DNA of 64,000 bases, taken from a bacterium (GTDB lineage: Bacteria > Hydrothermota > UBA3073 > JACQXS01 > JAGMCI01). The notes beneath the pieces are model-generated. The model was not told the origin of the DNA. It saw nothing but the letters and a program-made list of their open reading frames with translations, and searched no databases. Within the stretch, counting starts at the first letter, position 1. Each line of letters starts with the position of its first letter. The DNA is taken from NCBI GenBank assembly GCA_030018315.1, contig JASEGA010000003.1:7246-71245 (forward strand), given 5' to 3'. Below are positions 35,774 to 64,000 of the stretch, piece by piece. The position numbers and the translations under genes were made by a program.

Positions 35774-36977
35774 TATAATACTCTTTAAATGCAACCCAGC
35801 ATTTCCTGACCACACTCCAAAAGTCATTGCGAGTCCCGACAAAGGGTGGGACGAAGCAATCTTCCATAAACTTCCTTTTTACACATGCACGTGTAAGTTC
35901 AGCACCGAATATTTTACGCCATTCGTGTTCATATTCTGATAGTATATCAAGATTACCTTCTCTTATTGACTTGGCAGCTACTCGACCTGCAATTTTGCCA
36001 CATATAACAGCTTGAGGTATTCCACCACCAGTTATAGGATGAGTCTGACCTGCAGCATCACCTACTAAAATTGTATTCTCCTTATATGTCCTCTTCAAAG
36101 GACCACCTACTGGAATTAATCCACCTGTAACTGAAAGTTGGCTACCCTTAAGTTTACCACCGCTCTTTAACTTATCAACAAAATATTCCAATAACTCACT
36201 CAATCTCTCTTGATTGCTAAGTTCAAGGCTAAAACCTTGAGTTACATCTTTTAAATTTGGAATTTGGAATTTGTAATTTGTATTTTGTTTTATTCCTATT
36301 CCTACATTTGCAATCTTACCTTTTGGAAACAGCCATCCATAACCACCAACAAATTTATGGTCAAAGTAGACTTCAGTCCAATCCATCACAGTTGTGAGTG
36401 GCATTTCATATTGCAAAGCAGTAACAAAAGTTGTATTAGTTTCACCTACCCAACTCCCAACTGTAGATTGTGGCCCATCAGCTCCAATTATCACTTTTGC
36501 ATAGAGTTCTAAGTTTTTACCGTTTTTCTTACCTGTCGGCAGACAAGTATTTACAATTATTCCATTCTTTGTTTTAGAAATACACAATGTATTAAGTAAT
36601 ACATCTACTCCAATATTTTGTGCCCTTTGTACTAATTCTTTATCAAAAATAGCTCTATTTAATATATACCCGGGGGATTGTGTCTCAAAACATTTTCCCA
36701 AAATGTCATTGCGAGTCACGACCTTTGTCGGGACGAAGCAATCGCCATCCACTATGTAAGTTTTCATTGAATTTATTTCCTGTGCAATACTATCAGCTGT
36801 AAATTTTACCTCTTGTGATAGTAATTTAGGTACAAACTCAGCACACTGGACAGGCTCACCTACAACCTTCCTCTTTTCAAGCAATAATACTTTTGTACCT
36901 AATTTAGATGCTTCATACGCAGCAGATGCTCCTGCAGGACCAGCACCTACAACCACTATATCATATCGTTTCGTCAT
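35763..36977 (-). CDS. FAD-dependent oxidoreductase, geranylgeranyl reductase family, with three in-frame repeat insertions
   Basis: VVVGAGPAGASAA Rossmann motif. V-family elements at 36705-36743 (GDCFVPTKVVTRND) and 35823-35861 (EDCFVPPFVGTRND). A hexamer repeat at 36256-36290. Confidence 0.8.
   Translation of the reverse strand: MTKRYDIVVVGAGPAGASAAYEASKLGTKVLLLEKRKVVGEPVQCAEFVPKLLSQEVKFTADSIAQEINSMKTYIVDGDCFVPTKVVTRNDILGKCFETQSPGYILNRAIFDKELVQRAQNIGVDVLLNTLCISKTKNGIIVNTCLPTGKKNGKNLELYAKVIIGADGPQSTVGSWVGETNTTFVTALQYEMPLTTVMDWTEVYFDHKFVGGYGWLFPKGKIANVGIGIKQNTNYKFQIPNLKDVTQGFSLELSNQERLSELLEYFVDKLKSGGKLKGSQLSVTGGLIPVGGPLKRTYKENTILVGDAAGQTHPITGGGIPQAVICGKIAGRVAAKSIREGNLDILSEYEHEWRKIFGAELTRACVKRKFMEDCFVPPFVGTRNDFWSVVRKCWVAFKEYYNDE
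35823..35861. repeat. V-family element GTCATTGCGAG-[hairpin]-CGAAGCAATC
   Basis: Copies at 35823-35861, 36705-36743, 38615-38656, 56234-56269 (reverse) and 61483-61508 (reverse). Confidence 0.75.
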
Positions 36978-36994
36978 TCGGCATTTGGATTTCG

Positions 36995-38605
36995 TTATTG
37001 AATTGCATCCATAACCTCTTTTAACAACCCAATGTTTAGCTCAGTTTGACTCTCAAACCTGCCTTTATATGCTTCTTCAACCTTACCTAATTCGTAACAA
37101 GTAGTGTTATCTATATCAATCAATATTCCACCTAACCCTATATCCTCAAGTTCTTCTCTATGCTTTGCATAAAATGGCTCACAACAGCACCCAATATAAG
37201 AGGTGATACCGTCTCTTTTATACCTTTTAAGGGTTGACATTAGATGCTCAAAACTTACTATTGTTGTGACCATCATAGACCGCTCTCTCCCAATCCTATA
37301 TGCCTCACCAACACTACATTTGCCACACTCAGTGCAGAAATCTTTATATCTAAACTTGCAAACTTTCAGTTTTGCACAATATGGAAGAAGTAGGGGCAAT
37401 TCATGAATTGCCCCTACATGCTGAAGAATAATTTTAGAGAATGTCCCATTAACAGTGAATACTCTATTCCCCAATGGAAGCGGGATACCAAATTTTACGA
37501 GTTCAATTTTTTCCAATGCCTCATTAATTGCGGAGATAAAATCAGACGGCTTGATTCCAGGTATCTTGGGTAGGGACACGCCATGGCGTGTCCCTTTGAA
37601 AAATTGATTGATTTTATTTTGGACAGTTATTTTATCTGCCCTTATATCTTTGAGAATAGCTTCCAAGTCAAATATTGCCCTCTTTGGATACGCAAAGAAA
37701 TCGCCTGTTATGAGTGCACTCTCTATCTGATTACGCTTCGTATTAACTACAAGTGAAGTCCTAATCAATCCACCTTCTGCTTTATAAACTGAATGTGCAA
37801 CTTGGCGAGTATACGCTGGCTCTTTAACTTTATTAATCCATTTATTTGACTTAAATTTATTTAGTTTTTGGTAAAACAGCAACTCTTCATCTTTTGTCAA
37901 CCCACCCTTAATCAATTCAATCCCAAATTCTTTTTCAAACCCCTGTTTTAGTATTTGTTTTATAGGGGACTGTCCCCGAATGGAGACTGTCCCCGAATGG
38001 GGACACCCAAGTTCCCATTTTAGACAAGTAACTCGTTCTTTAACAGAGTCAATCTCTTTATCTTTGAGCTTTTCTATAGGAATACGAAGTGCTCTAAGCA
38101 TTGTATTAACATCAAAGTCTACAAGGAGCGTACCTTGAAATAAAAATGCCTCTCCTTCTTCTGTGCCACCTGTGCCAGAAATCTTTCTACCATTGACTTC
38201 AATATCATTTCTAGGCCGAAATTTTGCATTTATCCCTAATCTCTTGAGCGCATAAATAACAGGTTGACATAAATCCTTAAAGAAAGATTCGTTTACAATA
38301 CTGGTTTTAAAAAATGACTTCTCACAGATAATCTCCCAGCCAAGCTGTGACTCATCAAAATAAATTGCACCACCACCTGTAATTCTTCTGTTCACATCTA
38401 TACCATTTTTATTGCAGAAGTCAAGTCTAACCTCTTGTTCTACGGTCTGATGATAACCAACTAATACTGCAGGTGGATAAAATTGTAAGAACCTAACAGT
38501 ATTTGGAGAAAGCTTTTTACTTTTAGTCTCAAGCAATGTCTCATCCATTGCCATATTTTCAGCCGCTGTCCTCACCCCTGTATCAAGTAACCGCCACTTA
38601 CTCAT
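36995..38605 (-). CDS. Lipoate-protein ligase A-like protein with Cys-rich C-terminal extension, carrying elements C and D in-frame
   Basis: The N-terminus matches LplA (RRITGGGAIYFDESQLGWEII...). Extra C-terminal CxxC pairs. Element C at 37570-37595 (KGTRHGVSL). Element D triple copy at 37965-38006. Confidence 0.7.
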   Translation of the reverse strand: MSKWRLLDTGVRTAAENMAMDETLLETKSKKLSPNTVRFLQFYPPAVLVGYHQTVEQEVRLDFCNKNGIDVNRRITGGGAIYFDESQLGWEIICEKSFFKTSIVNESFFKDLCQPVIYALKRLGINAKFRPRNDIEVNGRKISGTGGTEEGEAFLFQGTLLVDFDVNTMLRALRIPIEKLKDKEIDSVKERVTCLKWELGCPHSGTVSIRGQSPIKQILKQGFEKEFGIELIKGGLTKDEELLFYQKLNKFKSNKWINKVKEPAYTRQVAHSVYKAEGGLIRTSLVVNTKRNQIESALITGDFFAYPKRAIFDLEAILKDIRADKITVQNKINQFFKGTRHGVSLPKIPGIKPSDFISAINEALEKIELVKFGIPLPLGNRVFTVNGTFSKIILQHVGAIHELPLLLPYCAKLKVCKFRYKDFCTECGKCSVGEAYRIGRERSMMVTTIVSFEHLMSTLKRYKRDGITSYIGCCCEPFYAKHREELEDIGLGGILIDIDNTTCYELGKVEEAYKGRFESQTELNIGLLKEVMDAIQ

Positions 38606-38663
38606 TTCTAAAATGTCATTGCGAGCGACCCTGAACTTGTTTCAGGGGAAGCAATCTCATTTT

Positions 38664-39584
38664 TTATTGAAAAAGCCCAGTTGATAAATACCGCTCTCCA
38701 GTATCAGGTAAAATCACTACTATTAGCTTACCTTTGTTTGCATCTCTTTTTGCAACTTGTAGTGCTCCCCAAACTGCAGTACCTGATGAGATTCCTACGA
38801 GCAAGCCTTCATCCTTTGCTAACTTTCGTGTCATATTCATTGCCTCTTCATTTGTTACTTGTATTATCTCGTCAATGATATCAGTGTTTAAAACAGCTGG
38901 CACAAACCCTGCCCTTATTCCCTGGATTTTATGAGGACAGAGCTGTCCACCAGATAGGACAGGAGAGTCCTTTGGCTCAACAGCTATTGCTTTAAATTCA
39001 GGTTTTCTATTTTTAATCACTTCAGCAACCCCGGTAATAGTGCCACCAGTCCCTACACCAGCAACCAAAATATCTACTTTACCATCTGTATCTCTCAAAA
39101 TCTCCTCTGCAGTCGTCTTTCTGTGTATTTCTGGGTTAGCTGGATTCTTAAACTGTTGTGGGATGAAGTATTTTGGGTCAGAGAAAGCAAGTTCATCTGC
39201 CTTCTCAACTGCACCTTTCATTCCTCTCTCTCCTGGTGTTAAAATAAGGTCTGCCCCAAATGCCTTGAGTAAAGCCCTTCATTCAACACTCATTGTATCA
39301 GGCATTGTAAGACATAACTTATAGCCTTTAACAGCGCACACAAATGCTAATGCTATACCTGTATTACCACTTGTAGGCTCAAGAATAACAGTATCTTCTT
39401 TTATAAGGCCAGCTTTTTCGGCTGCCTCAATCATTGCTACACCTATTCTATCCTTTACTGATGACAACGGATTAAAAGACTCTAACTTTGCTACCGCTTT
39501 CGCTTTTACCCCTTTAGTTATTTTATTCAACATCACCAAAGGAGTATTGCCAACTAACTCAGTCACATCCTTAGCAATCTTCAT
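38664..39584 (-). pseudogene. Cysteine synthase (cysK-like) interrupted by an in-frame TGA at 39280-39282
   Basis: The two ORFs (39279-39584 and 38664-39221) are collinear in one frame. They read ...[23 protein letters not shown], and Arg is expected at the stop position. Confidence 0.7.
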
Positions 39585-39602
39585 TTCATTCTAATTAAAA
39601 CT

Positions 39603-41120
39603 TTACAAACTAATATTTAATTTTAATTTAAAGCCCTCAAATGGTGTAAGGTAATGGCAGACACCAGCAGAACAAACATAGCCACCCTTCTCTTTACCAT
39701 ACCAGCTATCAAAAGATACTTTATCAAGCTCAGCTCTTATTCCTATTCCATACCATTCTATACCAGGTGATTCTTCAATTACTTCTTTAGAGCGGCGTGT
39801 ATAATTTGAATACACTGTTAAAATGTCAAAGACTGGAATTCCTACAGTTAACCCAATATCAAAGAAAGGTATAGTATCCCTAAATGTTACACCTTCTATT
39901 TTTTTCATAGAAAAAGTAGCTTCAATATTTTTAAAATTGCTATAAAGTTCAGTGTCTAACTCTCTACGTTTATTAAAATGTGGGGCAACGTCACCACTTA
40001 ATGATAAAAATTTTAACGACCCATTAAAGTTTCTAAAATCAGCCCCTAAATAATATTCAAGTATTTTCTTATCTTTCTCAATTTCAGTAGTGTCTTTAGT
40101 ATCTATCTCTGAATATGAGCCCTCAAACACAACTTCTCCTATTGCCTTATTAACATTAAGCTGAAAACCAATCTCATCCCGTCCATTATTTATTGAGTAG
40201 CCACTCCTATTAAGAATAGGCATCAAGTTATATCTGTATGCCATATCACCTATCCCTAATTTATTATAATTTATGAACTGAATATTTATACCATATGGGT
40301 ATATATCTAAACTTGAATACACTCCACTACCACTTTGGGGCTCAAAATCTATCCTATCCCAGCCACTTTTTTTAGCCAATTCCAAGTAAAAGGAAAACCA
40401 ATCCTGTGAATTAAATTCAAAATCTGTCCCCCACAAGTTTGTATATAAAGTATCACCAGTCTTAAGTCGCATTCCTCTACCAGATATTAAAAATACCTCT
40501 CTCAATAATAAATTGGTTGAAACATTGACCCCAAATATAGCATCAGAAGTGTCGTTTAAAATCTTATAGTTCTTCTGTAATCTATCAATTTCATAAGGAG
40601 TCCCATAAATTTCTGATAATTTAATCCATGGTAGTTTTGTCTCAATCTTTATACCCTCAATGTAACGCTCTCTACCCATTGCTTTAATAGGTTCCATACC
40701 AAGAATAAGCCCGTGACCTAAACTACAATAAAAATCACCTATATCCACAGAAATTAAGCGGCTATCAAACCCAACATCTTTCCATACTATAGCTAATCTA
40801 CTTGTATCTTTAATATGAAATTTTTTGTCCCAATAAGTGTTATATAAGAGCCCTATTTCGCCCCTTAAATTATAGCCAGCTACTCCTATACCTGTCTGCC
40901 GACAGGCAAGATAAGTCTCAGCTTCAGTAATAGCACTGGTATCTACTTTTCCACTTATTTGCTCATACCAAGCCCCATACCAAGTATCAAGTGTCTTCCT
41001 AACTGTAACCTCAAAAGCTGAACTAAATGCTGGAATCATTGAAATTAACAGAAAAAAATTAATCCAAGCCTTCCGGCTTTTCAATAACTGACTGTATCTC
41101 TTTATAAAGTAATTCTTCAT
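39603..41120 (-). CDS. Hypothetical secreted protein (signal peptide; start probably MKNYFIKR...)
   Basis: Long ORF with N-terminal n/h/c signal-peptide regions. No family recognised. Confidence 0.4.
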   Translation of the reverse strand: MKNYFIKRYSQLLKSRKAWINFFLLISMIPAFSSAFEVTVRKTLDTWYGAWYEQISGKVDTSAITEAETYLACRQTGIGVAGYNLRGEIGLLYNTYWDKKFHIKDTSRLAIVWKDVGFDSRLISVDIGDFYCSLGHGLILGMEPIKAMGRERYIEGIKIETKLPWIKLSEIYGTPYEIDRLQKNYKILNDTSDAIFGVNVSTNLLLREVFLISGRGMRLKTGDTLYTNLWGTDFEFNSQDWFSFYLELAKKSGWDRIDFEPQSGSGVYSSLDIYPYGINIQFINYNKLGIGDMAYRYNLMPILNRSGYSINNGRDEIGFQLNVNKAIGEVVFEGSYSEIDTKDTTEIEKDKKILEYYLGADFRNFNGSLKFLSLSGDVAPHFNKRRELDTELYSNFKNIEATFSMKKIEGVTFRDTIPFFDIGLTVGIPVFDILTVYSNYTRRSKEVIEESPGIEWYGIGIRAELDKVSFDSWYGKEKGGYVCSAGVCHYLTPFEGFKLKLNISL

Positions 41121-41553
41121 CTCCCTTTCTAAACCCGATACAATGATACAAAATTTCTCTATTTTTACCAATAATAAAAGTACACGGTATTACTTGCACT
41201 TGAAAAAGTTTTGCCACTTTTTGGTCATCATCATAAAGGATTAAGAAATCCCATCCACGCGATTTAACCATTAGAGGGACATTCCTCCTGGTACGAGTTT
41301 CATCTATATTAATACCAACAAAAGTTACATCTTGAGGTGATACCTCTTTGTTTAACTTCTTAAAAGTATCAAGCTCCCTTATACACGGCTTACACCAGGT
41401 AGCCCAAAATTCAATAACTACCAGTCCTCTATTAACAAGTGAGTCAAGCACTACCTCGTTTTTATCTAAGTCATTGAGAGTAAAATTAGGGGCAACTCGA
41501 GTCCCGACAAGTTGGGACTCTGGAGCAAGTATTAATAATAAAAAAATTATAAT
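41059..41553 (-). CDS. TlpA-like periplasmic thioredoxin (WCxxC) with no canonical start codon
   Basis: WATWCKPC active site. The frame is open upstream through a signal-peptide-like IIIFLLLILAP. Only ATT/ATA codons lie behind an AGGAG SD. Confidence 0.6.
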   Translation of the reverse strand: MIIFLLLILAPESQLVGTRVAPNFTLNDLDKNEVVLDSLVNRGLVVIEFWATWCKPCIRELDTFKKLNKEVSPQDVTFVGINIDETRTRRNVPLMVKSRGWDFLILYDDDQKVAKLFQVQVIPCTFIIGKNREILYHCIGFRKGDEELLYKEIQSVIEKPEGLD

Positions 41554-41642
41554 ATGACTCCTATCTCAAATGTTAAGTTTTATGTGTTTTGTTGTTCTCC
41601 TCCTGAATGAAGTGAAGAATCGCATTCTGAGTTTTCCTTCTT

Positions 41643-41668
41643 GTCATTCTGAGCGAAGCGAAGAATCT
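41643..41668. repeat. GTCATTCTGAGCGAAGCGAAGAATCT element, one of 3 copies in this intergenic region
   Basis: Forward copies at 41604-41631 and 41643-41668. Reverse copy at 41682-41700. Confidence 0.65.
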
Positions 41669-41713
41669 ACTTTTGGAGGGGCTTCACTATGCTCAGCATG
41701 ATATTTTGAGGTA

Positions 41714-42757: not shown

Positions 42758-42853
42758 CTCTCCTTCCTAGTTAAAATGCTTACCATATCAGCATTACCTA
42801 CCTCCCCTCAGTCTCTATTCACCCTCATAAGCCCCACCTCCTTATCATCTTAA

Positions 42854-43948: not shown

Positions 43949-43974
43949 AATTTTAGACTAAATCGTAAAGAGAC

Positions 43975-44196
43975 CTATACTGACTCCACTCTCTTTACCT
44001 CTGGTATCTTCTCTTTAAGCTTTGTCTCAACAACCTTAGTGAGAGTCAGCTGAGCCATAGGACAACCACCACATGCTCCTGTAAGCCTTACTTCCACTAT
44101 TCCATCCTTTACCTCAATAAGCTCAATGCTCCCACCATCCATGGCAAGCATTGGTTTTATATCCTCATTTAGCACCTTTTCTATCTTTTCTCGCAT
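43975..44196 (-). CDS. NifU-like C-terminal domain protein (Nfu-type Fe-S carrier)
   Basis: GACGGCP motif. Confidence 0.75.
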   Translation of the reverse strand: MREKIEKVLNEDIKPMLAMDGGSIELIEVKDGIVEVRLTGACGGCPMAQLTLTKVVETKLKEKIPEVKRVESV

Positions 44197-47729: not shown

Positions 47730-48899
47730 TTATGGCCTGGGTTTACCAAAAGGTGATATTTCTCTAAGCCTATTAACAACACCAGGAAATACATCAATCA
47801 CTCGCTCTATATCCGCATCTGTATTATCTCTGCCAAGACTGAATCTTAAAGATGAGTGTGCAACTTGAGGTGGTATTCCCATAGATAGTAGGACATGGGA
47901 AGGCTCAAGTGACCCAGAAGTACAGGCAGACCCTGAAGATGCAGATATACCTTCATAATCCAAATTCAATAACATAGATTCACCCTCCACATATTTTACA
48001 CAAATTGATAGCGTCCCACTAAGCCTATTTTCTGGATGTCCTGTTAGAATAACATCCGGTATCTTATTCATTATACCATTATACAACTTATCCCTTAATC
48101 TTTTAAGCCTCGTATCTTCTTCGCTCATTTCACTCCCTGCTATTTCACACGCTTTACCTAGCCCTACAATGCCTGGAACATTTTCAGTACCAGCCCTACG
48201 ATTGAATTCATGATGACCACCATGGATGAGTGGGTCAACCTTTGTCCCTCTTTTAATATAAAGTGCACCTACTCCTTTGGGACCGTAAAATTTGTGTCCT
48301 GATAAAGAAAGTAAATCTACACCAAGCTTGTTAACATCTATAGGAATCTTACCCGCTGTCTGCACTGCATCTGTATGGAAATATATACCACGCTCTTTTG
48401 CAAACTTTGCAATCTCCTGGATTGGCTCAATTGTGCCGACTTCGTTGTTAGCATGCATAATAGTGATTAAAATTGTTTTATTAGTAATTGCAGCCTTGAG
48501 TTCGTCCAAATCAACAACCCCATATTTATCTACACCAACATAACTTACATTAAATCCCTGCCGCTCAAGCCACCTGCATGGGTTAATTACTGCATGATGC
48601 TCAATCTTTGATGTAATTATATGATTGCCCTTATCCTTATTTGCATAAGCAATTCCTTTAATTGCAAAATTATTTGCTTCAGTCCCACTTGCTGTGAACA
48701 CAATTTCCTTTGAATCCGCACATAAAAGTTTAGCTACTTTATCTCTTGCATCTTCAATGGCTTCACGCGCCTCACTTCCAAATTTATATATGCTTGATGG
48801 ATTACTGTATAACTCATTAAAATATGGACGCATCGCATCAATCACTCTTGGGTCAGTAGGTGTAGTAGCATTATGGTCAAGATAGATAAACTTAGCCAT
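47730..48899 (-). CDS. iscS: Cysteine desulfurase (IscS/NifS)
   Basis: SGHKFYGPKG PLP lysine motif and SSGSACTS active-site Cys loop. Confidence 0.9.
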   Translation of the reverse strand: MAKFIYLDHNATTPTDPRVIDAMRPYFNELYSNPSSIYKFGSEAREAIEDARDKVAKLLCADSKEIVFTASGTEANNFAIKGIAYANKDKGNHIITSKIEHHAVINPCRWLERQGFNVSYVGVDKYGVVDLDELKAAITNKTILITIMHANNEVGTIEPIQEIAKFAKERGIYFHTDAVQTAGKIPIDVNKLGVDLLSLSGHKFYGPKGVGALYIKRGTKVDPLIHGGHHEFNRRAGTENVPGIVGLGKACEIAGSEMSEEDTRLKRLRDKLYNGIMNKIPDVILTGHPENRLSGTLSICVKYVEGESMLLNLDYEGISASSGSACTSGSLEPSHVLLSMGIPPQVAHSSLRFSLGRDNTDADIERVIDVFPGVVNRLREISPFGKPRP

Positions 48900-49371
48900 C
48901 CTTCCCCCTCTGTTTGTATTCGTCCAAAATATCTTGCAAGCTCATATCATTAAGAATCTTGCTAAATTCCTTACTTAACCTATTCCATACAACTCTTGCT
49001 ACACAGTTATTTATTCTATCACACTCTCCGGTTGAGGTTTCACCTCTTGGCACACAGTTTGAAAGCTTAATAGGACCCTCAAGTGCATATAAAATATCGC
49101 CTACCTTTATTTTCTTAAGTGGCTTTTTAAGTTTATACCCACCACCAGGTCCTCGCACAGATTCAACCAATCCCGCTATATTAAGGTCGTGAAAAATTCT
49201 CTCCAAGTAAGCCATAGGAATACACTGTTTTTCAGATACACTCTTAACCGAAGTAGGGGCTTGATTAATCAAACCCCTACCTTGCCCATTTTTAGCTTGC
49301 CTCGCCAAGTCAAGGCGGGCAAGCTCAATCATTGCCCGTAGCCCATATCTACCTTTACTTGAAATCCTCAT
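48892..49371 (-). CDS. Rrf2-family regulator (IscR-like) with in-frame palindrome A insertion
   Basis: MRISSKGRYGLRAM... Rrf2 N-terminus and CVPRGETSTGECDRINNC ligand cysteines. Element A at 49253-49280 encodes GRGLINQAPTS just upstream of the HTH. Confidence 0.8.
   Translation of the reverse strand: MRISSKGRYGLRAMIELARLDLARQAKNGQGRGLINQAPTSVKSVSEKQCIPMAYLERIFHDLNIAGLVESVRGPGGGYKLKKPLKKIKVGDILYALEGPIKLSNCVPRGETSTGECDRINNCVARVVWNRLSKEFSKILNDMSLQDILDEYKQRGKDG
49253..49280. repeat. Palindromic element A variant (GTAGGGGCTTGATTAATCAAACCCCTAC) inside the iscR-like gene
   Basis: In-frame insertion. Confidence 0.8.
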
Positions 49372-49599
49372 ATTTTAATATTATAAAATACTCTACCATT
49401 TTTGTCAAGTATTTTTAAAAAAGGAGTGTACTGAAAAAAGTATAAAAATTGTCACTCTGAACGAAGTGAAGAGTTTCCGGATTCCGCATATTTATTTAGT
49501 AATAGAGATTCTTCGCTACGCTCAGAATGACAGTTTAATGGTATTTTTCAGCACGCTCTTGAAAAAGTACCAAAGTTTGATACCCTCATTGATAGCAAC

Positions 49600-50175: not shown

Positions 50176-51054
50176 CCCATACGGACTACATTTTACTATT
50201 TTACACTCTACGGCAACGGCTTAACAATCTTGTAAGTAATCCGTACAGAATGAATCCGATGACTCCCGTCATCGCTGTTAAGATAGCACCACACAAAATA
50301 TTTGTAGAGCGAGTTGCCAATGAGATAGCATTGTCCAAATTGCCGCGTAAAAGAGTTGCATTTATATTATTAGCATTGTTATCCATCACCCTTACTTCAA
50401 ATTCTGTTACCTTTGCTCCATCAGGCAGATTTACTGGAGCATACCACTCGGAATTGAGCGAATAACTGGCTAAGTAAAGGCCCCCAGTTGTTCCATAAGC
50501 ATAACTATTGGTACCTGGCATAAATGCACACGGTGGAATAGTGTAATATCTTACCACTGTATCCATCGTGATTGTGCCCTTGATAATAATCCCTCAGTTC
50601 ACTTCGAGTTTTTCCCCGGGTTACTCGTTCCGATGCCGACGTTACCGCCTCCATATGCCAATATGACCTCTCCAGAAGAAGCGTAATTGATATAAGGCTA
50701 TTTAGCATTTGTAGAGTCTTGCCAGCAAAGAATCTATTTTGACCCCCCTACTAATTTATTTCTATGTTCAAATACTCTACACTCAAGATTATTTGTGACT
50801 CCAATATAAAGAACTTTGTTAGACTTATTTGTGAGAATATACACGTAATATTGCTCGTTCATAATGTCATGCTGAATTTATTTCAGCATCTCTTTTTTTA
50901 AGATTCCGAAACAAGCCTGCCCTAAGGAGATTCTGAACCAAGTTCAGAATGACACTTTCAGGGTTCGGAATGACATTTCTAAATAGCCTCAGTCTAAATC
51001 AAAAATATCCAAAGTCAGTATAATTAATTTATAAAGATTTTGGGTGTCAACATT

Positions 51055-54558: not shown

Positions 54559-55173
54559 GTGTTATCCGATAACACTATCCATGTAGGGACACGCCATGGC
54601 GTGTCCCTACTCGTAATATTATTTTGCTCTTCATCACTTTCACATTGTTTGCATAGATTGGACTTTAGGCTTTGGATTTATAGAAATATGGGTATCCGTT
54701 ATATGAATGAAAGACAATACGATAAAGCTATTAATTATTTTAAGCGTGGTTTAAGCATAGATTCAACAGATGCGAAGATTTGGCATCAGCTTGGTGTTTG
54801 TTATTTCTATAAAGGTGATTGCATAAATGCTAAAGAGGCGTTTGAGTATACAATTAAGTATGACTCTACATTAGAGGACACTTACTTCAATCTCGGTGTT
54901 CTCTTAATAAAGGATAAAAGATATGACAAAGCAGTAAAAGTTCTAAATAAGTTAGTTAAACTTAAACCGGACGATATTTCTGCACTTTTACATTTAGGTA
55001 GTGTTTATCTAATTATTGGAGAATATAAAAAGGCAGTTGATATTTATACTAAAATCATAAAATTTAATCCTGATAATTTAGAGGCTTATGAAGGTAGGGC
55101 TACTGCTTACTGGAAGCTTGGGCTTGATAATAATGCAAAAGCTGATTTAATACGAGCAAAAGAGTTACATTAA
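54559..55173 (+). CDS. TPR-repeat protein, diverged tandem duplicate of the 3' half of the upstream gene, beginning with element C
   Basis: Residues after ~50 align with the C-terminal ~160 aa of the upstream gene. The N-terminus MLSDNTIHVGTRHGVSLL is encoded by palindrome C at 54583-54610. Confidence 0.55.
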   Translation: MLSDNTIHVGTRHGVSLLVILFCSSSLSHCLHRLDFRLWIYRNMGIRYMNERQYDKAINYFKRGLSIDSTDAKIWHQLGVCYFYKGDCINAKEAFEYTIKYDSTLEDTYFNLGVLLIKDKRYDKAVKVLNKLVKLKPDDISALLHLGSVYLIIGEYKKAVDIYTKIIKFNPDNLEAYEGRATAYWKLGLDNNAKADLIRAKELH

Positions 55174-56148: not shown

Positions 56149-56281
56149 CCACTCACATTATACTCTGCTATATTTTAGCTTGTCAAATAAAAACCTTGAT
56201 TTTTATAGTAAACTATGATAAATTTTTACTAAGATTGCTTCGTCCCGATAAATCAGGACTCGCAATGACGGTAAAAAAGAT

Positions 56282-57091
56282 ATGAAGGCGATTGTTACCA
56301 TTCTAACAGATTTTGGCCTATCTGATTCCTATGTTGGAGTTATGAAGGGGGTTATGCTTAAGATAAATCCTGAGCTTAAATTTGTAGATATTACTCACTC
56401 AATTCCTCAAGGTAATATAAAGAAAGCCGCCTTTCAGCTTTTTACTGCCTACAAATACTTCCCAAAATCGACAATCCACCTTGTAGTAGTAGACCCGGGA
56501 GTAGGGACTAAAAGAAACCCTATAATTGTTGAGACAAACGATTATCACTTCGTAGGTCCTGATAATGGTGTTTTTAGCTGGATATATGAGAATGAGGATT
56601 TTAAAGTCTACAAAATCATGGAAATCTCATCTTTAATAAGTAATACATTTCATGGTAGGGATGTCTTTGCCCCAATAGCAGCAAAACTAAGTTTAAGGAT
56701 TAAGCCTTCAGAGTTGGGCAATTTGTTAAATCAATGGGTAAAATTCAAGCCACCTAAGCCAATAATAAAAAGTAATACAATTAGGGGTGAAGTTTTGGAC
56801 ATAGACGGATTTGGTAATATTATAACAAATGTACCCAAATCCGTATTTGAGGCTATTGCAAAAACAAACTTTAAAATTAAAATAAAAAACTGTGTAATAA
56901 AGGAGATAAAGACTTCTTACATGCAAAATCACCGATTTTGTACTCCAAAACTGGGTAAATCTCCAATTGCAATATTTGGTAGTGCTGGATTTTTGGAAAT
57001 CTCTTTACCCAGTGGAAACTGTGCAAAATTACTTAATTCAAAGGCAGGAACAAAGATTTCTATCAAATATAATCTGTATAAGAAAACTTAA
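56282..57091 (+). CDS. SAM hydroxide adenosyltransferase (DUF62, SalL/fluorinase-like SAM hydrolase)
   Basis: TDFG..DSYVGVMKGV...VVDPGVGT...FVGPDNGV motif series. Confidence 0.8.
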   Translation: MKAIVTILTDFGLSDSYVGVMKGVMLKINPELKFVDITHSIPQGNIKKAAFQLFTAYKYFPKSTIHLVVVDPGVGTKRNPIIVETNDYHFVGPDNGVFSWIYENEDFKVYKIMEISSLISNTFHGRDVFAPIAAKLSLRIKPSELGNLLNQWVKFKPPKPIIKSNTIRGEVLDIDGFGNIITNVPKSVFEAIAKTNFKIKIKNCVIKEIKTSYMQNHRFCTPKLGKSPIAIFGSAGFLEISLPSGNCAKLLNSKAGTKISIKYNLYKKT

Positions 57092-57539: not shown

Positions 57540-57646
57540 TCCACCATTTGCTACAAATCTGAATTCAATGTCGTAACTCCCTTGCGGGATAACATAAGTT
57601 GTTGGTGAATCTATAAGATAGCCAAAATTAAATAAGAAAAAGATTA

Positions 57647-60600
57647 TTAAAATGGCACACCTCCCAATTTAACTGCCCCTTCCCCAAATAATTTTTTAAT
57701 CTTTGAGCAGAGGCTTTTTTTTGGGGTTATTTTAACTCCAGTTTTCAAAGTTATTTTGTCTTGATTCTCACCTAAGAGATGTAAGAACACTTCGCAGTCT
57801 CCTGGAGCTGAATCCAAAGTTTGACGTAAATCTATTAAAGGCTTTTCATCTAATCCCAAAATTCTCACATAAATATCTATCCATTTGACAAATTCGTCCC
57901 TTACCTTTGATAACGGGATTATCTTTAAAGCTCTAACAGAAACTCTATCATCTCTTCGTGCTACTTCACCTTTAACTAAAATTCCTTCCTCAGGCTCGAT
58001 AGAGTTTGCATTGAACACATTATCAAATACCATAACTTCAGAACTGCCATCAAAATCTTCAATTGTTAGAAATGCAATATGCTTATCTCTAATCACCTTT
58101 TTCCTAACTACTATTCCTCCAACAATTACCTCTTTCTTAGTAGGCTCAGCTGCTATATCACGTGTCTTGACAGTAGTAAAGGCTTCAAGCTCATCCTTAT
58201 ATCTCTCAAGTGGATGCCCTGAGAAATAAAACCCAAATGCCTCTTTTTCCCATGAGAGTAACTCAGCTTTCGACCACTCCCCTTTTTTAACTGGCTCATC
58301 CCTAATGAACAGGCTAAGTTGAGCTGTCTCTTTTTGATTTAGGGTATCTAAAAGCTTCTCCCGATTTGGGTCAATAGAATCAAATGCACCTGCTTTTATT
58401 AAGCTTTCACATGCTTTACGATTAAGAGTTACACGATTTAAGAAGTCAGAAAACGATTTAAACGGTCTTTTATTTATGCACTCATCGGCGGCACTCTTAC
58501 CGAGATTCTTTATAGCAGCAAGTCCAAACCTTATTCCTCTATTCTCAGGTTTAAAATAAGAGTCTGCGCAATTTATATCTGGTGGCAATACCTCTATCCT
58601 CATCCTACGGCATTCATCTATAAGCAACTTTATCCGGTCTGTATCCTGTAATTCAGATGTCAAGTTACTTGCCATAAACTCTACCGGATAATGAGCTTTA
58701 AGCCATGCAGTCTGGTAAGAAAGTAGTGAATAGCCAGCAGAATGTGATTTGTTAAATCCATAACCTGCAAATGGTATCATTAAATCAAATATTTGATTAG
58801 CTAAACTTTCTGGTATCTCATTCTTTTTAGCCCCTTCAATGAATGATTTTCTTCTTTCATCCATAACCACTGGGTTCTTTTTACCCATCGCTCTCCTTAA
58901 GATATCGGCTTCACCGAGACTAAATCCAGCTATAACAGATGCTATTTGCATTACCTGGTCCTGATACAGTATTATTCCATAGGTATCACGTAGAATTGGC
59001 TCAAGTTTAGGATGCGGATAAGTTATTTTTTCCTCACCATGCTTACGATGTATAAATCTATCTTTTGTAAGCCCACCAATTGGGCCCGGTCTATATAGAG
59101 CGAGGACTGCCATTATATCATTAAACGATTCAGGAGCTAACTTTCTTAATATGTCTCTCATTCCATCTGATTCAAGCTGGAACACTCCTACAGTATCACC
59201 TTTTTTAAGTAAGTTAAAGACACGAGCATCATTTTCTGGTATCTCTCTTACTCCCTTTTCTTTGAGCATCTCTAATGTGTTATGAATGACTGTAAGGGTG
59301 CGTAGCCCAAGTATATCTATTTTAAGCAACCCTATATCTTCAAGCGACTTCATTGAATATTGAGTTGATAAAGTGCCTTCCTCAGATTTAAACAGTGGTG
59401 TAAAGTCAGTTAAATTTCCGGGCGCAATAACTATTCCAGCTGCATGTGTAGAAGCATGACGTGCTATACCTTCAAGTTTTCCTGCTATTTCAACTACTTT
59501 TTTAAGCTGTGCGTCAGCTTCTACAGCTTCTTTGAATTCATGTATCTCAACTGCTTCATTAATTGATGCTCCAAGTGGTATAAGCTTAGCTATCCTATCA
59601 ACAACTGGGTATGGTACCTTAAGAACCCTACCTACATCTCTTATTGCAGCTCTTGCTGCCATTGTCCCAAAAGTTATTATCTGACAAACATTTTGCTTCC
59701 CGTATCGCTCAGTAATATAGCGTATAACCTCGTCCCTTCGTTCATCACCAAAGTCTATATCAACATCAGGTGGTGATACCCGTTCAGGATTTAAGAATCT
59801 CTCAAAGATGAGGTTATAACGTAGAGGGTCAATTTGAGTTACTCCAAGACAATAACAAACAAGACTACCTACTGTAGAGCCCCTACCGGGCCCGATTGGT
59901 ATTTTTTTCTCTTTTGCAAAGTCTATTAAGTCCTTAATTATCAGGAAGTAACCAGAAAATCCCATCCGTTTTATAGTGTCAAGTTCATATTCAAATCTTT
60001 CACGCACCTCCTTTGATGGCTTTTTGTACCGTTCATTTAACCCTTTCTCTGCAATAGCTTGCAGATATTCATCACTTGAATCATAACCTTCAGGAAGAGG
60101 ATAAGATGGGAAGTATACTTTTGTTGGGTCAAGCTCAAGTCTTAAGTTGCACTGTTCAGCAATCTGTACAGTATTTTCTATAGCTTCAGGATGGTCAGAA
60201 AAAAGGGCTGTCATCTCATCCGGTGATTTAAAATAAAGTTCTTGTGACTCAAATCGTAGCCTTTTATCATCTTCCAAGTCTTTGCGAGTCTGTAAGCATA
60301 ATAGCACATCATGGGCTTCTGCATCTTCTGGTCTAAGATAATGGCAATCATTTGTAGCAACTAATGGGATTCCAAGTTCATCTGCAATTTTTACAAGTTC
60401 ACCATTAACAAGGTCGTTATCTTTTAAACCGAGCCTCATAAGTTCGAGGTAAAAATTACCTTCTCCAAAGATTGATAGGTATTCACTTGCTACCTTTGTT
60501 GCATGGTTAAAATTTCCCTTTTTAATCCAGTACGGGATTTCGCCCCTTAAACAGCCAGATAATGCAATAAGACCTTCAGAGTATTCTTTTAATATAGTTT

Positions 60601-60970
60601 TATCAATTCTCGGTTTATAGTAGAAACCTTCTGTATAAGCAAGGGTTGATAATTTCATAAGATTCTTGTAGCCACATTCATTCTTAACAAGCAACGTCAA
60701 GTGGAAAGCCGGTACCCCATCTACAGTTTGATGTCCAAATCTTGACCCCGGAGCTACATACACTTCTTCACCTATAATTGGCTTAATTCCAAAGTTTTCC
60801 ATAGTTTTATAGAATTCAATGACTCCAAACATATTGCCATGGTCTGTTATTGCAAGTGCTGGCAGTAAATATTGTTTAGCGAGCTCACCAAGTTTTTCTA
60901 TTTTACAGGCTCCATCAAGTAGGCTATAATCTGTATGGATATGGAGGTGAACAAATTTAGCGTGTGCCAT
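57647..60970 (-). CDS. dnaE: DNA polymerase III alpha subunit
   Basis: N-terminal PHP domain HLHIHTDYSLLDGA, a polymerase core, and an OB-fold C-terminus. Confidence 0.9.
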   Translation of the reverse strand: MAHAKFVHLHIHTDYSLLDGACKIEKLGELAKQYLLPALAITDHGNMFGVIEFYKTMENFGIKPIIGEEVYVAPGSRFGHQTVDGVPAFHLTLLVKNECGYKNLMKLSTLAYTEGFYYKPRIDKTILKEYSEGLIALSGCLRGEIPYWIKKGNFNHATKVASEYLSIFGEGNFYLELMRLGLKDNDLVNGELVKIADELGIPLVATNDCHYLRPEDAEAHDVLLCLQTRKDLEDDKRLRFESQELYFKSPDEMTALFSDHPEAIENTVQIAEQCNLRLELDPTKVYFPSYPLPEGYDSSDEYLQAIAEKGLNERYKKPSKEVRERFEYELDTIKRMGFSGYFLIIKDLIDFAKEKKIPIGPGRGSTVGSLVCYCLGVTQIDPLRYNLIFERFLNPERVSPPDVDIDFGDERRDEVIRYITERYGKQNVCQIITFGTMAARAAIRDVGRVLKVPYPVVDRIAKLIPLGASINEAVEIHEFKEAVEADAQLKKVVEIAGKLEGIARHASTHAAGIVIAPGNLTDFTPLFKSEEGTLSTQYSMKSLEDIGLLKIDILGLRTLTVIHNTLEMLKEKGVREIPENDARVFNLLKKGDTVGVFQLESDGMRDILRKLAPESFNDIMAVLALYRPGPIGGLTKDRFIHRKHGEEKITYPHPKLEPILRDTYGIILYQDQVMQIASVIAGFSLGEADILRRAMGKKNPVVMDERRKSFIEGAKKNEIPESLANQIFDLMIPFAGYGFNKSHSAGYSLLSYQTAWLKAHYPVEFMASNLTSELQDTDRIKLLIDECRRMRIEVLPPDINCADSYFKPENRGIRFGLAAIKNLGKSAADECINKRPFKSFSDFLNRVTLNRKACESLIKAGAFDSIDPNREKLLDTLNQKETAQLSLFIRDEPVKKGEWSKAELLSWEKEAFGFYFSGHPLERYKDELEAFTTVKTRDIAAEPTKKEVIVGGIVVRKKVIRDKHIAFLTIEDFDGSSEVMVFDNVFNANSIEPEEGILVKGEVARRDDRVSVRALKIIPLSKVRDEFVKWIDIYVRILGLDEKPLIDLRQTLDSAPGDCEVFLHLLGENQDKITLKTGVKITPKKSLCSKIKKLFGEGAVKLGGVPF

Positions 60971-61060
60971 TTTGTTTATTCTGTGTATTTCTGTAGCCTA
61001 AACTTAATTTTATTTAATAGTGACAAAATTGCAAGTAAAAAATATAAAAAAGTGATTTTG

Positions 61061-61470
61061 TTATGTGGTCGAAAGAGGTCCTAAGGCTATTACTTCGGTG
61101 ATAAAATCATTTACAACTTGGCAAAATTTGTTACCTTCTCCTGCTGATACCCATTCAAGTTTGAGTCTTTTAGGGTCTATACCAAGCTGTTGCATCATAT
61201 TTTTAAGTAGAAAATATCCCTTCGTGTCTTATAATTTCCATTTATATAGTGACAGTCACCAGGATGACAGCCAGCCACCATCACACCATCTACCCCCATT
61301 TTGAAGGCTGTCATGATAAATTCTGGGTCAATTCTACCTGAGCACATAGTTCTTATTATCCTAAAATACGGCTTTATCTGTAACCTTGATACTCCTGCCA
61401 GGTCAGCTCCTGCATATGCACACCAGTTGCAGCAAAAGACTATAATCTTTGGGTTAAAATCCTTATTCAT
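61061..61470 (-). pseudogene. mvhD: MvhD-type hydrogenase/heterodisulfide reductase-associated [2Fe-2S] subunit, frameshifted in an A5 run near 61197-61201
   Basis: N-terminal part [17 protein letters not shown]...CSGRIDPEF...GCHPGDCHY is in one frame. The C-terminal part [25 protein letters not shown]... is in the -1 frame. Confidence 0.7.
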
Positions 61471-61478
61471 TCAATTTG

Positions 61479-64000
61479 TTAGATTGCTTCGCTTACACTC
61501 GCAATGACCATTGCTGACAACTGCTCACTCCTAAACCCTTGTTGTTGCATGGCTCCAGATGGACAGGCAGAAGCACAGGAGCCACACCCTTTACATAGCG
61601 CCTCATTTACCTTTGAACTTCTCTTACCCTCTTTAACTACCATTTCAATCGCCTCATACGGGCATAATCCACTGCAAACACCACAACCGGCACATAGTTC
61701 TTCATTCACTTGTGAGATCGCAGCCTCAGCGGAATATTTTTTATTTGCAATGATTGTAGAAGCTCTGGCTGCAGCAGCTTCAGCCTGATTTATTGTCTCA
61801 TCAATACATTTTGGACTATGTGCCATACCAGCAACAAAGATGCCTTCAGTAGCAAAGTCAACTGGTCGCAGTTTGACATGCGCTTCAAGGAAAAAGCCTT
61901 CACTATTCAAAGGCACCTTTAACAGCTTTGCCAGTTTTTCATTCTCTTTCTCTGGCTCAACCCCATTTGAAAGGACCACAAGGTCTGGTACAATTTCGAG
62001 TTTCTCATTAAGAATCGGCTCAAATACAGAAATCATTAGTTTACCATTAGCTCTCCGCAACTCCGGTTTTGACTCATCGTCATATCTAATGAAGACAACA
62101 CCCGCCTCTCTTGCCTTTCTATAGAAATCTTCTTTCAACCCGTACGTCCTTACATCCCGATATAGGACATAGATACTTGCATCAGGGTTTATCTCCAAAA
62201 GCCTTAATGAGTTTTTCACAGCCTGAGAGCAGCAAATTCTGCTACAGTATTGATGGCTATCATCTCTAGAACCAACACACTGAATCATCACTACAGATGA
62301 TAGATTACAGATTACAGATGACAGATTTTTATCTTGTGTCTTGTTTCTGATTTCTTGCTTCTGATTTTTTGCTTCTTCAAGCAATCCTTCTAACTCTTTC
62401 TGTGTGATTACTCGTTTATCTTGACCATATAGATATTCAGTAGGCTGATACTCTTGTGCACCTGTAGCAACAATCACCACACCATGTTTAAATTTTTCCA
62501 TAGTCCCGTCTTTAAGTATAACTTCAGTCTCATAATTTCCAATATAACCTGAAATTGATTCAATCTTTGCCTCATTGAACACTTTTATCAATCTGTTAGT
62601 TTTCACCTTTTCAATAGTTCTTATCAAGAAATTTTGTACATCCCTGCCTTCAATTGTATAATAGGTATGCCTTAAATTGCCACCAAGTTCATTCTCTTTT
62701 TCAACCATGAAGACCTCAAACCCTTGCTCAGCCAGCGAGATGCTTGAAATCATTCCCGCAATTCCACCTCCAATGACCAACGCTTTCTGAGTAACATCAA
62801 TCTCAACCTGTTTTAGCGGTGCAATTAATCGTGCCTTAGCAACTGCCATTCTCACCAAATCTTTTGCCTTTTCAGTTGCTTCTTTTGGCTCTTTCATATG
62901 AATCCAACTGCATTGGTCACGAATATTTGCCATCTCAAACAAATAAGGGTTTAATCCCGCTTCCCTAATTGTGTCACGGAAAAGTGGCTCATGTGTCCTC
63001 GGTGTACAGGAAGCAACTATGACACGATTTAATTTGTGTTCTTTAATCAGCTCTACAATTCTCTTTTGTGTATCCTGTGAACAAGTATATAGATTATCTT
63101 CAGCATATACAACATTTGGTAGTGTTTTTGCATACTCTACTACAGAGGGCACATCTACATAACCGCCGATATTTATTCCACAGTGGCAGATAAATGCACC
63201 AATGCGTGGCTCTTGACCCAAGACATCCAACTCTGGTGGATATTCTTTTTTTGTGATTAATGTATTTCTAGCCTCAGTTAGAAGACACATCGCCTTAACT
63301 GCGGCAGCTGATGCCTGTGTTACAGTCTCAGGTATATCCTTTGGACCAGCAGATGTGCCACAGACATAGATGCCATCTTGAATTGTATCAACTGGCATAA
63401 ACTCAGAAGTTCGACAGAACCCGTATTCGTTAAGGGTAACACGTAATCTTTTTGCCAATTGAGCCATACCAGCTTTGGGTAAAAGACCAACTGATAGGAC
63501 AACCAGAGAAAACTCTTCATTTCTTATTTCACCAGCCTCACTTTCATAATGCACCATTAAATTCTTAGTATTTGAATCTTCATCAATCCTTGAAACACCA
63601 GCCCGAATAAATTTCACTCCATACTCATTCTTTGCCCGTTCATAATAGGATTCAAACCCTTTACCAAAAGTCCTGATGTCCATAAAAAATATTGTCGTCT
63701 CAAGTCCATTCTTTTCCACAGGATTCTGCGAAGAATGCTCCTTGGCAATGATTGCCTCTTTGATGGCATAGGTGCAACAGACTGATGAACAATAGCTTTT
63801 TCCAGACTGTGTATCCCTTGACCCAACACATTGTATAAATGCAATCCTTTTAGGTGGCTTACCATCTGATAATCTCTGAATATGGCCGCCAAACGGACCT
63901 GATGCTGAAAGTATTCTTTCAAATTCTATTGAGGTAACAACATTCTTATACCTTCCGTACCCATATTCACTCTTCTTTTTTGCATCAAATTCATCAAACC
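61479..64000 (-). CDS. HdrA-like FAD/Fe-S flavoprotein (large, multi-domain; 5' end beyond window) with in-frame heptamer array and V-element C-terminus
   Basis: The frame is open from the window edge. Repeated HdrA motifs (GAFICHCGINIGG, GVVIVATGAQEY, C-terminal CAGCGVCSGLCP and CKGCGSCASACP). The ORF-track start at 63719 is an internal GTG. Confidence 0.85.
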   Translation of the reverse strand, partial: FDEFDAKKKSEYGYGRYKNVVTSIEFERILSASGPFGGHIQRLSDGKPPKRIAFIQCVGSRDTQSGKSYCSSVCCTYAIKEAIIAKEHSSQNPVEKNGLETTIFFMDIRTFGKGFESYYERAKNEYGVKFIRAGVSRIDEDSNTKNLMVHYESEAGEIRNEEFSLVVLSVGLLPKAGMAQLAKRLRVTLNEYGFCRTSEFMPVDTIQDGIYVCGTSAGPKDIPETVTQASAAAVKAMCLLTEARNTLITKKEYPPELDVLGQEPRIGAFICHCGINIGGYVDVPSVVEYAKTLPNVVYAEDNLYTCSQDTQKRIVELIKEHKLNRVIVASCTPRTHEPLFRDTIREAGLNPYLFEMANIRDQCSWIHMKEPKEATEKAKDLVRMAVAKARLIAPLKQVEIDVTQKALVIGGGIAGMISSISLAEQGFEVFMVEKENELGGNLRHTYYTIEGRDVQNFLIRTIEKVKTNRLIKVFNEAKIESISGYIGNYETEVILKDGTMEKFKHGVVIVATGAQEYQPTEYLYGQDKRVITQKELEGLLEEAKNQKQEIRNKTQDKNLSSVICNLSSVVMIQCVGSRDDSHQYCSRICCSQAVKNSLRLLEINPDASIYVLYRDVRTYGLKEDFYRKAREAGVVFIRYDDESKPELRRANGKLMISVFEPILNEKLEIVPDLVVLSNGVEPEKENEKLAKLLKVPLNSEGFFLEAHVKLRPVDFATEGIFVAGMAHSPKCIDETINQAEAAAARASTIIANKKYSAEAAISQVNEELCAGCGVCSGLCPYEAIEMVVKEGKRSSKVNEALCKGCGSCASACPSGAMQQQGFRSEQLSAMVIASVSEAI
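62294..62326. repeat. (GATTACA/TGTAATC)n heptamer array inside the hdrA-like CDS
   Basis: Encodes NLSSVICNLSSVV between conserved domains. Confidence 0.7.

Follow-up and report, generated by a model that had tools for sequence, protein, structure and literature searches.

A 64,000-nucleotide stretch of contig JASEGA010000003.1 (positions 7,246 to 71,245 of the forward strand), which will be referred to as the window, raises the question of why one small nested hairpin occurs twice in frame within a reductase gene of the GGR family, once as the C-terminus of an HdrA-like protein and twice in front of other genes. The initial annotation of this DNA had listed these five copies, here named the V family, and had argued from their pairing flanks and variable cores for selection on RNA or DNA structure. 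In our judgement the most probable answer, to which we assign a probability of about 0.72, is that V is a subfamily of the CGTC-tagged repetitive extragenic palindromic (REP) or Ssn-related hairpin repeats, with an invariant part, the clamp, that most likely serves as recognition and cleavage determinant for a nuclease of the Ssn family.

A search with the pattern ATTGCGAG-N(0-30)-GAAGCAAT returned five matches in the window (35826-35860, 36708-36742 and 38618-38655 on the plus strand, 56234-56266 and 61483-61505 on the minus strand), exactly at the sites listed before, whereas none of 100 dinucleotide-preserving shuffles of the window contained a match and the chance expectation is none. The five copies have the general form GTCATTGCGAG-[hairpin]-(C)GAAGCAATC. 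Copy 1 (35823..35861, plus strand, GTCATTGCGAG-TCCCGACAAAGGGTGGGA-CGAAGCAATC, covariance model score 32.0 bits) and copy 2 (36705..36743, plus strand, GTCATTGCGAG-TCACGACCTTTGTCGGGA-CGAAGCAATC, 29.9 bits) lie antisense in the GGR-like open reading frame (ORF). Copy 3 (38615..38656, plus strand, GTCATTGCGAG-CGACCCTGAACTTGTTTCAGGG-GAAGCAATC, 30.2 bits), which carries GGAAGCAATC in place of CGAAGCAATC, is intergenic and antisense to its operon. Copy 4 (56233..56269, minus strand, (C)GTCATTGCGAG-TCCTGATTTATCGGGA-CGAAGCAATC, 32.8 bits) is situated in a divergent intergenic region, and copy 5, the minimal form (61482..61508, minus strand, GTCATTGCGAG-TGTAAG-CGAAGCAATC, 31.0 bits), runs in sense at the 3′ end of the HdrA-like ORF. 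Both intergenic copies were found directly upstream of start codons as annotated, copy 3 ending 9 nt before the lplA-like ATG (38605) and copy 4 ending 12 nt before the ATG of the DUF62 (SAM_HAT) gene at 56282 on the opposite strand. For copies 1-3 and 5, the gene that contains the copy or comes after it is encoded on the minus strand, and three of the five copies are antisense to the host transcripts. The base preceding GTC in copies 1-5 is A, T, T, C and G, respectively. The clamp is intact at 20/20 positions in all five, and decayed copies of the ATTGC type were not detectable in the window.

A covariance model trained on 70 foreign copies, none of them from the window, recovered exactly the five V copies (29.9-32.8 bits, E about 1e-5) and then picked up four sister-type copies (11.7-16.4 bits). 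Folding of the clamp (ATTGC/GCAAT) around the inner hairpin, as originally proposed, was confirmed for copies 1-4 (z = -2.2 to -3.0 compared to shuffles); the short copy 5 folded no better than its shuffles.

Several peculiarities of the copies were observed in addition. An A-rich CYAAAA(T) directly 5′ of the GTC tag is common to copies 1-3 (35817-35822, 36697-36704 and 38607-38614); it consists of native GGR Phe-Trp codons at copy 1 and lies within the inserted block at copy 2, and may represent a target preference or a co-mobilised part of the unit. The core of copy 2 (36716-36734) corresponds to the inverse complement of its counterpart in copy 1 (35834-35852), 12 bases (TCCCGACAAAGG) being identical between the two and the loop changing from AAAG to CTTT inside the same clamp, which suggests hairpin flipping or nested insertion. 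A related hairpin, GAGTCCCGACAAGTTGGGACTC, stands alone without a clamp at 41499-41520. Just upstream of copy 3, a cysK-like (PALP) gene is split into the ORFs 38664..39221 and 39279..39584 (minus strand) and may be frameshifted or interrupted.

The GGR-like ORF (35763..36977, minus strand) reads copy 2 as DCFVPTKVVTRND (aa 79-91) and copy 1 as DCFVPPFVGTRND (aa 373-385). Its product comprises 404 aa compared to 344-353 aa in 13 aligned homologs, which are 49-61% identical to it. The inserted block at copy 2, 48 nt (16 aa) with ILGK included, is missing from all 13 homologs, and at copy 1 all 13 are net 8 aa shorter, so that the suspected absence of both segments from orthologs was borne out. 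An AlphaFold 2 model of the protein (mean predicted local distance difference test score, pLDDT, of 80) contained only two stretches below 50, namely residues 78-92, corresponding to copy 2, and residues 234-253, a separate insertion that is not a V copy. Copy 1 was modelled as a coil between the helices 343-375 and 383-392 with pLDDT values of 64-69. Copies 1 and 2 each measure 39 nt; read antisense, two of the three frames hold a TGA stop and the open frame is the frame used. Since only the open frame is used, a survivorship filter suffices to account for the in-frame state and special targeting is not needed, and such a filter is how the state is best read.

Two non-V insertions were seen in the same gene. 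The insertion of ~20 aa at residues 234-253 is missing from the homologs and contains, in frame, a heptanucleotide tandem repeat (ACAAATT/CCAAATT, four times, 36255-36285). A 21-nt mini-hairpin, ACTTGTCTGCCGACAGGTAAG, at about 36527-36547 represents a third GGR insertion (TCLPTGK, aa 144-150), which was present in 0/13 homologs.

The HdrA-like ORF (61479..63719, minus strand) takes its last nine codons (VIASVSEAI) from copy 5, with the stop codon following directly and the mvhD-like ATG 8 nt past the stop. The ORF translations agree with the initial annotation here as well as for the two in-frame copies in the GGR gene. HdrA proteins with solved structures align with the window protein through ...QLSAM and then diverge, and 17 close HdrA homologs end in ...AM-IEAxxE or similar. 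Judged from these alignments, the tail encoded by copy 5 replaces a native tail of 6-8 residues. Orthologs carrying the same peptides, which would have pointed to native coding sequence, were not encountered, as the GGR and HdrA homologs are without them. Heptanucleotide repeats resembling AGATTAC are also read in frame inside the HdrA-like ORF (62300-62331).

The best named match of the window DnaE belongs to candidate division WOR-3 / Stahlbacteria (76% identity). A 17-kb contig of a WOR-3 relative (L202) contained no V copy, and the region upstream of its DUF62 gene lacks the element and has kept the purine-rich stretch before the ATG. To judge from these comparisons, the window V copies are genuine insertions. 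A GGR gene was not found in a near relative of the window organism, the best match being 53% identical. Nor were there orthologous pairs of filled and empty sites among 120 V loci from other genomes, as no two of these loci are orthologous.

These foreign loci stem from a scan of a collection holding one genome per species with the exact pattern GTCATTGCGAG-N(5-35)-GAAGCAATC, which was found in at least 120 genome stretches, the estimated number of chance matches for the whole collection being about 34. Among the matches listed, the hosts belong to about 15-20 phyla, including Alpha-, Gamma- and Deltaproteobacteria, Chloroflexota, Patescibacteria, Bacteroidota, Cyanobacteria and Zixibacteria, furthermore Planctomycetota, Firmicutes, Campylobacterota, Ignavibacteriota, Armatimonadota, Omnitrophota, Latescibacterota, Spirochaetota and others; no archaeon was among the 120 matches listed. 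The clamp is identical across these about 15-20 phyla and is not specific to the window genome. At least 120 predicted viral contigs (IMG/VR, L204-L323) also contained the exact pattern, some with several copies or doublets, and these contigs may represent prophages or host DNA wrongly classified as viral. Close neighbouring pairs were tail-to-tail in 60 of 76 cases, with 8 of opposite polarity and 8 direct. The spacers of the doublets were mostly 20-32 nt long, typically CAG...CTG, and direct repeats indicative of target-site duplication were not seen at the outer ends of the doublets. In-frame V copies occur in conserved genes elsewhere, namely uvrA (L109), guaA (L085) and an AddB-like gene (L069). 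String searches of the literature with the clamp, its reverse complement, typical translations and the other palindromes yielded only primer coincidences or nothing.

The anatomy of the unit is uniform. An unpaired 5′ tag (C/T)GTC precedes a 5-bp outer stem ATTGC/GCAAT, inside which follow a purine-rich internal loop, GA opposite GAA, and a G-C closing pair; the centre is an inner hairpin free in sequence and length, and an unpaired C and a short tail stand at the 3′ end. The clamp has a length of 20 nt, and tandem sheared G.A pairs with a single bulged A can form in its GA/GAA loop. In 170 copies from the 120 foreign genome stretches, with GTC fixed by the search design, the base before GTC was C (63%) or T (33%), and the invariant final C was followed by C (64%) or T (33%), then A (54%) or C (37%), then G (50%), typical tails being CCAG or CTC. 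The core was hairpin-like in every foreign copy, at lengths from 5 to 35 nt. With its commonest form, CGAAGC, the unit is 26 nt long (GTCATTGCGAGCGAAGCGAAGCAATC) and centred on GCGAAGC.

The claim that pairing of the inner stem is kept by compensatory changes was supported. Across 70 foreign copies with 12-14-nt cores the inner helix covaries with a score of 0.174 compared to 0.055 in shuffles; 0/500 shuffles reached 0.174, and slid partners gave at most 0.05. At the pairs 14:26 and 15:25, C-G, G-C and a second tandem G.A/A.G replace one another. Since the GA/GAA loop is rich in purines on just one of the strands, the conserved features are intelligible for a single folded strand only. The proposed selection on RNA or DNA structure was thus upheld as far as a structural constraint is concerned; its RNA side is less likely, and the constraint most likely acts on single-stranded DNA (ssDNA) as the target of a GIY-YIG nuclease.

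Known structural motifs were considered and rejected. By inspection, the conserved residues of the GA-rich loop fit neither a hammerhead core nor a standard kink-turn with a 3-nt bulge, and Rfam supports neither these readings nor a loop-E. An integron attC-like reading was discarded, R-box motifs (GTTRRRY/RYYYAAC) and cassette arrays both being absent.

A link to a nuclease is apparent in a planctomycetal locus (L063), one of the 120 V loci, in which a 96-aa single-domain GIY-YIG ORF (Pfam PF01541, 65 bits) is preceded by a V copy, 13 nt from the start codon, and followed directly after the stop codon by an inverted one. Metagenome contigs were searched with this protein, one homolog and a fragment from the window as queries, which gave 576 confirmed relatives, of which 80 loci were kept. 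In these loci 257 of 297 tagged hairpins had the ATTGC stem. A V copy in the expected orientation was located within 150 nt of the gene in 70/80 loci and on both sides in 45/80, the inverted copy beginning 3 nt past the stop codon in 12 loci. V density amounted to 8.9/kb within 150 nt of the gene and 0.73/kb beyond, a 12-fold enrichment. The polarity V - gene - inverted V is that of the gene-less doublets. Scoring of the V-linked GIY-YIG protein against NCBIfam gave nothing above the cut-offs.

The window itself harbours a truncated gene of this type. A 42-codon ORF on the minus strand (50734..50862; MNEQYYVYILTNKSNKVLYIGVTNNLECRVFEHRNKLVGGSK*) scores 37.4 bits with PF01541 (cut-off 22.6), keeps only the N-terminal half (profile positions 1-36 of 78) and matches the V-flanked 96-aa planctomycetal protein with phmmer E = 1e-10. 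This ssn-like remnant ends in ...AAATTAGTAGGGGGGTCAAAATAG, and the break in homology coincides with GTAGGGG, the start of GTAG-type repeats (50734-50760); the gene may have been truncated by a GTAG-type element.

Two published repeat systems resemble V most closely. CGTC-tagged REPs were defined by Di Nocera, De Gregorio and Rocco in 2013, who described the families CGTC-1 to -4 with an unpaired CGTC/TGTC tag (variant CCTC), a stem starting with A-T, T-A, and a CCA tail (PMC3733652). They occur mainly as inverted dimers with 20-100-nt spacers, include intragenic copies in DNA-repair and other genes, comprise Neisseria dRS3 and the Rickettsia conorii elements RPE-4/RPE-6, and were reported from 5 phyla (PMC3733652). 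No transposase gene was found flanked by them and no dedicated transposase is known from that work, and its authors noted that bulged members may have escaped their search (PMC3733652). V shares with them the (C/T)GTC tag, the A-T/T-A start of the stem, an unpaired tail led by C (published consensus CCA), the prevalence of inverted dimers, copies in genes and at C-termini, uvrA included, the lack of a linked transposase, and coexistence with GTAG REPs in one genome. It differs in its intragenic peptides, since those published (VIPAKAGI, DSRFRGND, VIAGLDPAIH and others) are not V translations and no strings typical of V translations were found in the supplements of PMC3733652, and in its hosts, which comprise about 15-20 phyla, WOR-3 included, compared to the 5 published ones.

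The second system is that of the Ssn nucleases (Nat Commun 2025;16:2388). The Neisseria repeat NTS (CGTCATTCCCGCGMAVGCGGGAATCYRG) is bound and cut by SsnA, a 94-aa GIY-YIG protein, as ssDNA only (PMC11893778). The substrate of Ssn is the folded top strand, with the cut directly 5′ of the tag; cleavage requires three bases upstream of the palindrome and binding above all the C just after it, and the loop can be removed or extended (PMC11893778). The ssn genes are typically flanked by their own repeats in an NTS-ssnA-NTS architecture, and in Neisseria Ssn restricts incoming repeat-bearing ssDNA during transformation (PMC11893778). V has in common with NTS the tag, the AT start of the stem and the C after the palindrome, it flanks both sides of a ~95-aa single-domain GIY-YIG gene, and its variable core is paralleled by the loop that is irrelevant to the enzyme. 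In contrast to NTS, the V clamp ATTGCGAG...CGAAGCAAT lies outside the published pattern of Ssn-related motifs (SRM), and the V-linked nuclease clade is known from sequence alone. For SRM and Ssn a strong association has been reported (81% of SRM-rich genomes).

By analogy with this system, the invariant clamp most likely determines recognition and cleavage by an Ssn-family endonuclease, a small protein with a single GIY-YIG domain. As the loop is dispensable for Ssn (PMC11893778), the clamp would stay identical across phyla while the core drifts under a pairing constraint only. The arrangement V - ssn - inverted V has the appearance of a gene-carrying form, and the tail-to-tail doublets that of its gene-less miniatures. 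In this WOR-3-like genome the V copies are singletons that landed inside genes or beside them. Intragenic copies would persist because they lengthen the ORF by a multiple of three bases, are free of stops in the frame that is read, and are placed in loops or at a C-terminus. What we observed directly are the insertions, the anatomy of the family, its spread across phyla and its physical linkage to ssn-like genes; the biochemistry is borrowed from the literature on Ssn (PMC11893778) and not from V-linked nucleases. That Ssn or any other enzyme moves the repeats, and that the window copies are still substrates, we infer. The repeat class is already described, in-frame gene copies included, and V is a new subfamily in a new host lineage. 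Beyond published descriptions are the GA-loop clamp with its free inner hairpin, the clamp identity over about 15-20 phyla, the tight linkage of the clamp to one GIY-YIG clade and the formal resemblance of gene-carrying units to gene-less doublets.

Several points weigh against this assignment. Ssn proteins are not known to transpose their repeats. The nearest V copy prefers the expected orientation relative to ssn by only about 2:1, an ssn-like ORF is present within 8 kb in only 3 of the 120 randomly sampled V loci, and viral contigs hold V copies but almost never the nuclease gene (1/120 V-positive contigs, L292). The window contains no intact ssn gene, only the 42-codon remnant, and membership of the V-linked clade in the Ssn family (CDD cd10448) is putative, the clade having been recognised with Pfam PF01541. 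Structurally, V has a 5-bp stem, a GA/GAA loop and an inner hairpin of 3 to more than 30 nt, whereas CGTC-tagged REPs have a continuous stem of 8-9 bp with a 4-5-nt loop. Furthermore, the published SRM pattern, HGTCWYN(0-2)YYVSBRHN(0-5)WNVSBRGN(0-2)RNCYNB (PMC11893778), matches NTS but neither V26 nor V32 nor any window or sister copy, with zero matches in the window.

Possible, though we regard it as tentative, is a further-reaching interpretation, in which V - ssn - inverted V constitutes an autonomous mobile element of an undemonstrated transposon class that uses a ~95-aa GIY-YIG ssDNA nuclease instead of a DDE or HUH enzyme. Doublets and singletons would then be non-autonomous miniatures, the clamp identity over some 15-20 phyla and the presence of the clamp in many predicted viral contigs would result from ongoing horizontal spread and not from ancient inheritance, and the in-frame copies of the window would be recent hits. 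Recency would follow from the state of the five copies, all with clamps at 20/20 and with no decayed ATTGC-type copy beside them.

It is unlikely that V is mainly an RNA element, with the G.A hairpin acting as mRNA stabiliser, terminator, protein-binding motif or translation modulator. The folds are indeed stable under RNA parameters, both REP superfamilies occur mostly at gene 3′ ends and are believed to be transcribed (PMC3733652), start codons lie directly beside copies 3 and 4, and copy 5 occupies the hdrA/mvhD junction. However, three of the five window copies would show the pyrimidine-mismatch strand to the mRNA, the GA/GAA loop existing on one strand only, and SsnA does not bind the RNA form of NTS (PMC11893778). 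Rfam recognised no family at gathering or permissive threshold: with Rfam 15 only tRNA reached the gathering score in the window, no model overlapped any window V copy at E<=10, and five V-rich loci were also without a match. A local RNA effect at individual sites could nevertheless coexist with recognition of the clamp by an Ssn-like nuclease.

Classical REP/REPIN mobilisation offers a different precedent. Like REPINs (Bertels and Rainey 2011, PMC3116915), V consists of short hairpins arranged as inverted doublets, the REPIN doublet being the replicating unit, and again a repeat-flanked single-copy gene is the presumed mobilising enzyme and no target duplication is seen. Mobilisation of V by a REP-associated tyrosine transposase (RAYT), an IS200-like Y1 HUH enzyme, with the V tag in the role of GTAG, might be favoured by the REPIN-like doublets without target-site duplication at their ends and by GTAG-tagged palindromes of classical type in the same window, but we consider it very unlikely. 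The V tag is GTC and not GTAG, the V-flanked gene encodes a GIY-YIG nuclease and not a Y1 HUH transposase, and REPIN sequences are lineage-specific, in contrast to the V clamp with its identity across phyla. Searches of the window and the 120 V loci by phmmer with IS200 TnpA and an E. coli RAYT, approximate queries of limited sensitivity, gave nothing at E<=10. All-versus-all clustering of the ORFs from these 120 loci yielded nothing but housekeeping families (ABC ATPases, SDR dehydrogenases, kinases, EF-G/EF-Tu and RND pumps), and in the survey of Di Nocera et al. no transposase gene was flanked by CGTC repeats (PMC3733652). The idea that native coding sequence makes up the segments, in the form of a conserved peptide motif with hairpin potential by chance, accords with intact ORFs that carry them in frame but can be dismissed, since it is refuted by the ortholog alignments (0/13 GGR homologs and none of the inspected HdrA C-termini have the segments), the same nucleotide string recurs between the genes of many phyla as well as in every reading frame, and the AlphaFold 2 model gives pLDDT <50 over the inserted stretch.

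Palindromic repeats within proteins have a precedent in Rickettsia, where Ogata et al. in 2000 reportedly described in-frame insertions of Rickettsia palindromic elements (RPE) into protein-coding genes (cited in PMC3733652). As with V, these are read as extra peptides in conserved proteins, fall in surface loops and are apparently tolerated. They differ in size, RPE-1 measuring 100-150 bp compared to 27-42 bp for V, which belongs to the superfamily of the small RPE-4/-6, and in their host, which here is a free-living bacterium of a candidate phylum and not an obligate intracellular one.

On the favoured assignment to the CGTC-tagged and Ssn-related repeats, the flagged sequences would be selfish or domesticated hairpin repeats written into proteins of an uncultured WOR-3-like bacterium, and neither a conserved peptide motif nor a new RNA. 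The same repeats yield recurrent spurious peptides in metagenomic protein sets (VIAS...EAI, DCF...RND, SLRG...RRSNL), and V copies lengthen real proteins, which matters for annotation and structure prediction. Because the V subfamily lies outside the published CGTC-REP and SRM search patterns, current repeat counts are underestimates. Whether Ssn nucleases move repeats, and what role the repeats play outside naturally transformable pathogens, becomes testable with the tight V-ssn-V units, the gene-less doublets and a clamp identical across phyla.

The four sister-type copies that the covariance model picked up in the window, with a compensated outer stem (ATTCT/AGAAT), are located as follows. 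The first (41643..41667, covariance model hit 41641-41670, plus strand, 15.4 bits) reads GTCATTCTGAG-CGAAGC-GAAGAATC; its outer stem ATTCT/AGAAT shows two compensatory pairs relative to ATTGC/GCAAT, and a degenerate inverted partner follows it. A tail-to-tail doublet on both strands (49451..49531), the only dimer of the window, is composed of GTCACTCTGAACGAAGTGAAGAGT (plus, 49451-49474), a 32-nt spacer and GTCATTCTGAGCGTAGCGAAGAATC (minus, 49507-49531), the minus half reaching 16.4 bits (49504-49533); its architecture is that of the 60 foreign doublets. A degenerate copy, GTCATTCTGAGCTAAGCGAATAATC, was detected on the minus strand at 5850..5874 (hit 5847-5876, 14.5 bits). Finally, a nested V-like pair on the minus strand (50902..50974) consists of the outer GTCATTCCGAA...TTCGGAATC around GTCATTCTGAAC-TTG-GTTCAGAATC (50929-50953), the inner copy scoring 11.7 bits (50926-50955), and lies 39 nt upstream of the ssn-like remnant on the same strand.

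Perfect GTAG...CTAC palindromes of three or four families, e.g., GTAGGGGTTTGATTAATCAAACCCCTAC, GTAGGGACACGCCATGGCGTGTCCCTAC and GTAGGGGCAATTCATGAATTGCCCCTAC, were found at 8473-8504, 8940-8971, 11271-11297, 28983-29010, 29919-29946, 37390-37417, 37572-37595 and 54583-54610; these are classical GTAG-tagged REPs beside the CGTC-type copies. Two of them are read in frame in the lplA-like ORF 36995..38605 (peptides VGAIHELPL and GTRHGVSL), and further ones are present in the Rrf2-like ORF 48892..49371 and in the TPR ORF starting at 54559. A k-mer inventory additionally revealed another short dispersed repeat, GATTCAGTCTA(C/T)ATCAATGA and variants, at 4454-4520, 8975-8994, 13811-13890 and 15847-15856, one group of which adjoins the tRNA at 4375-4449.

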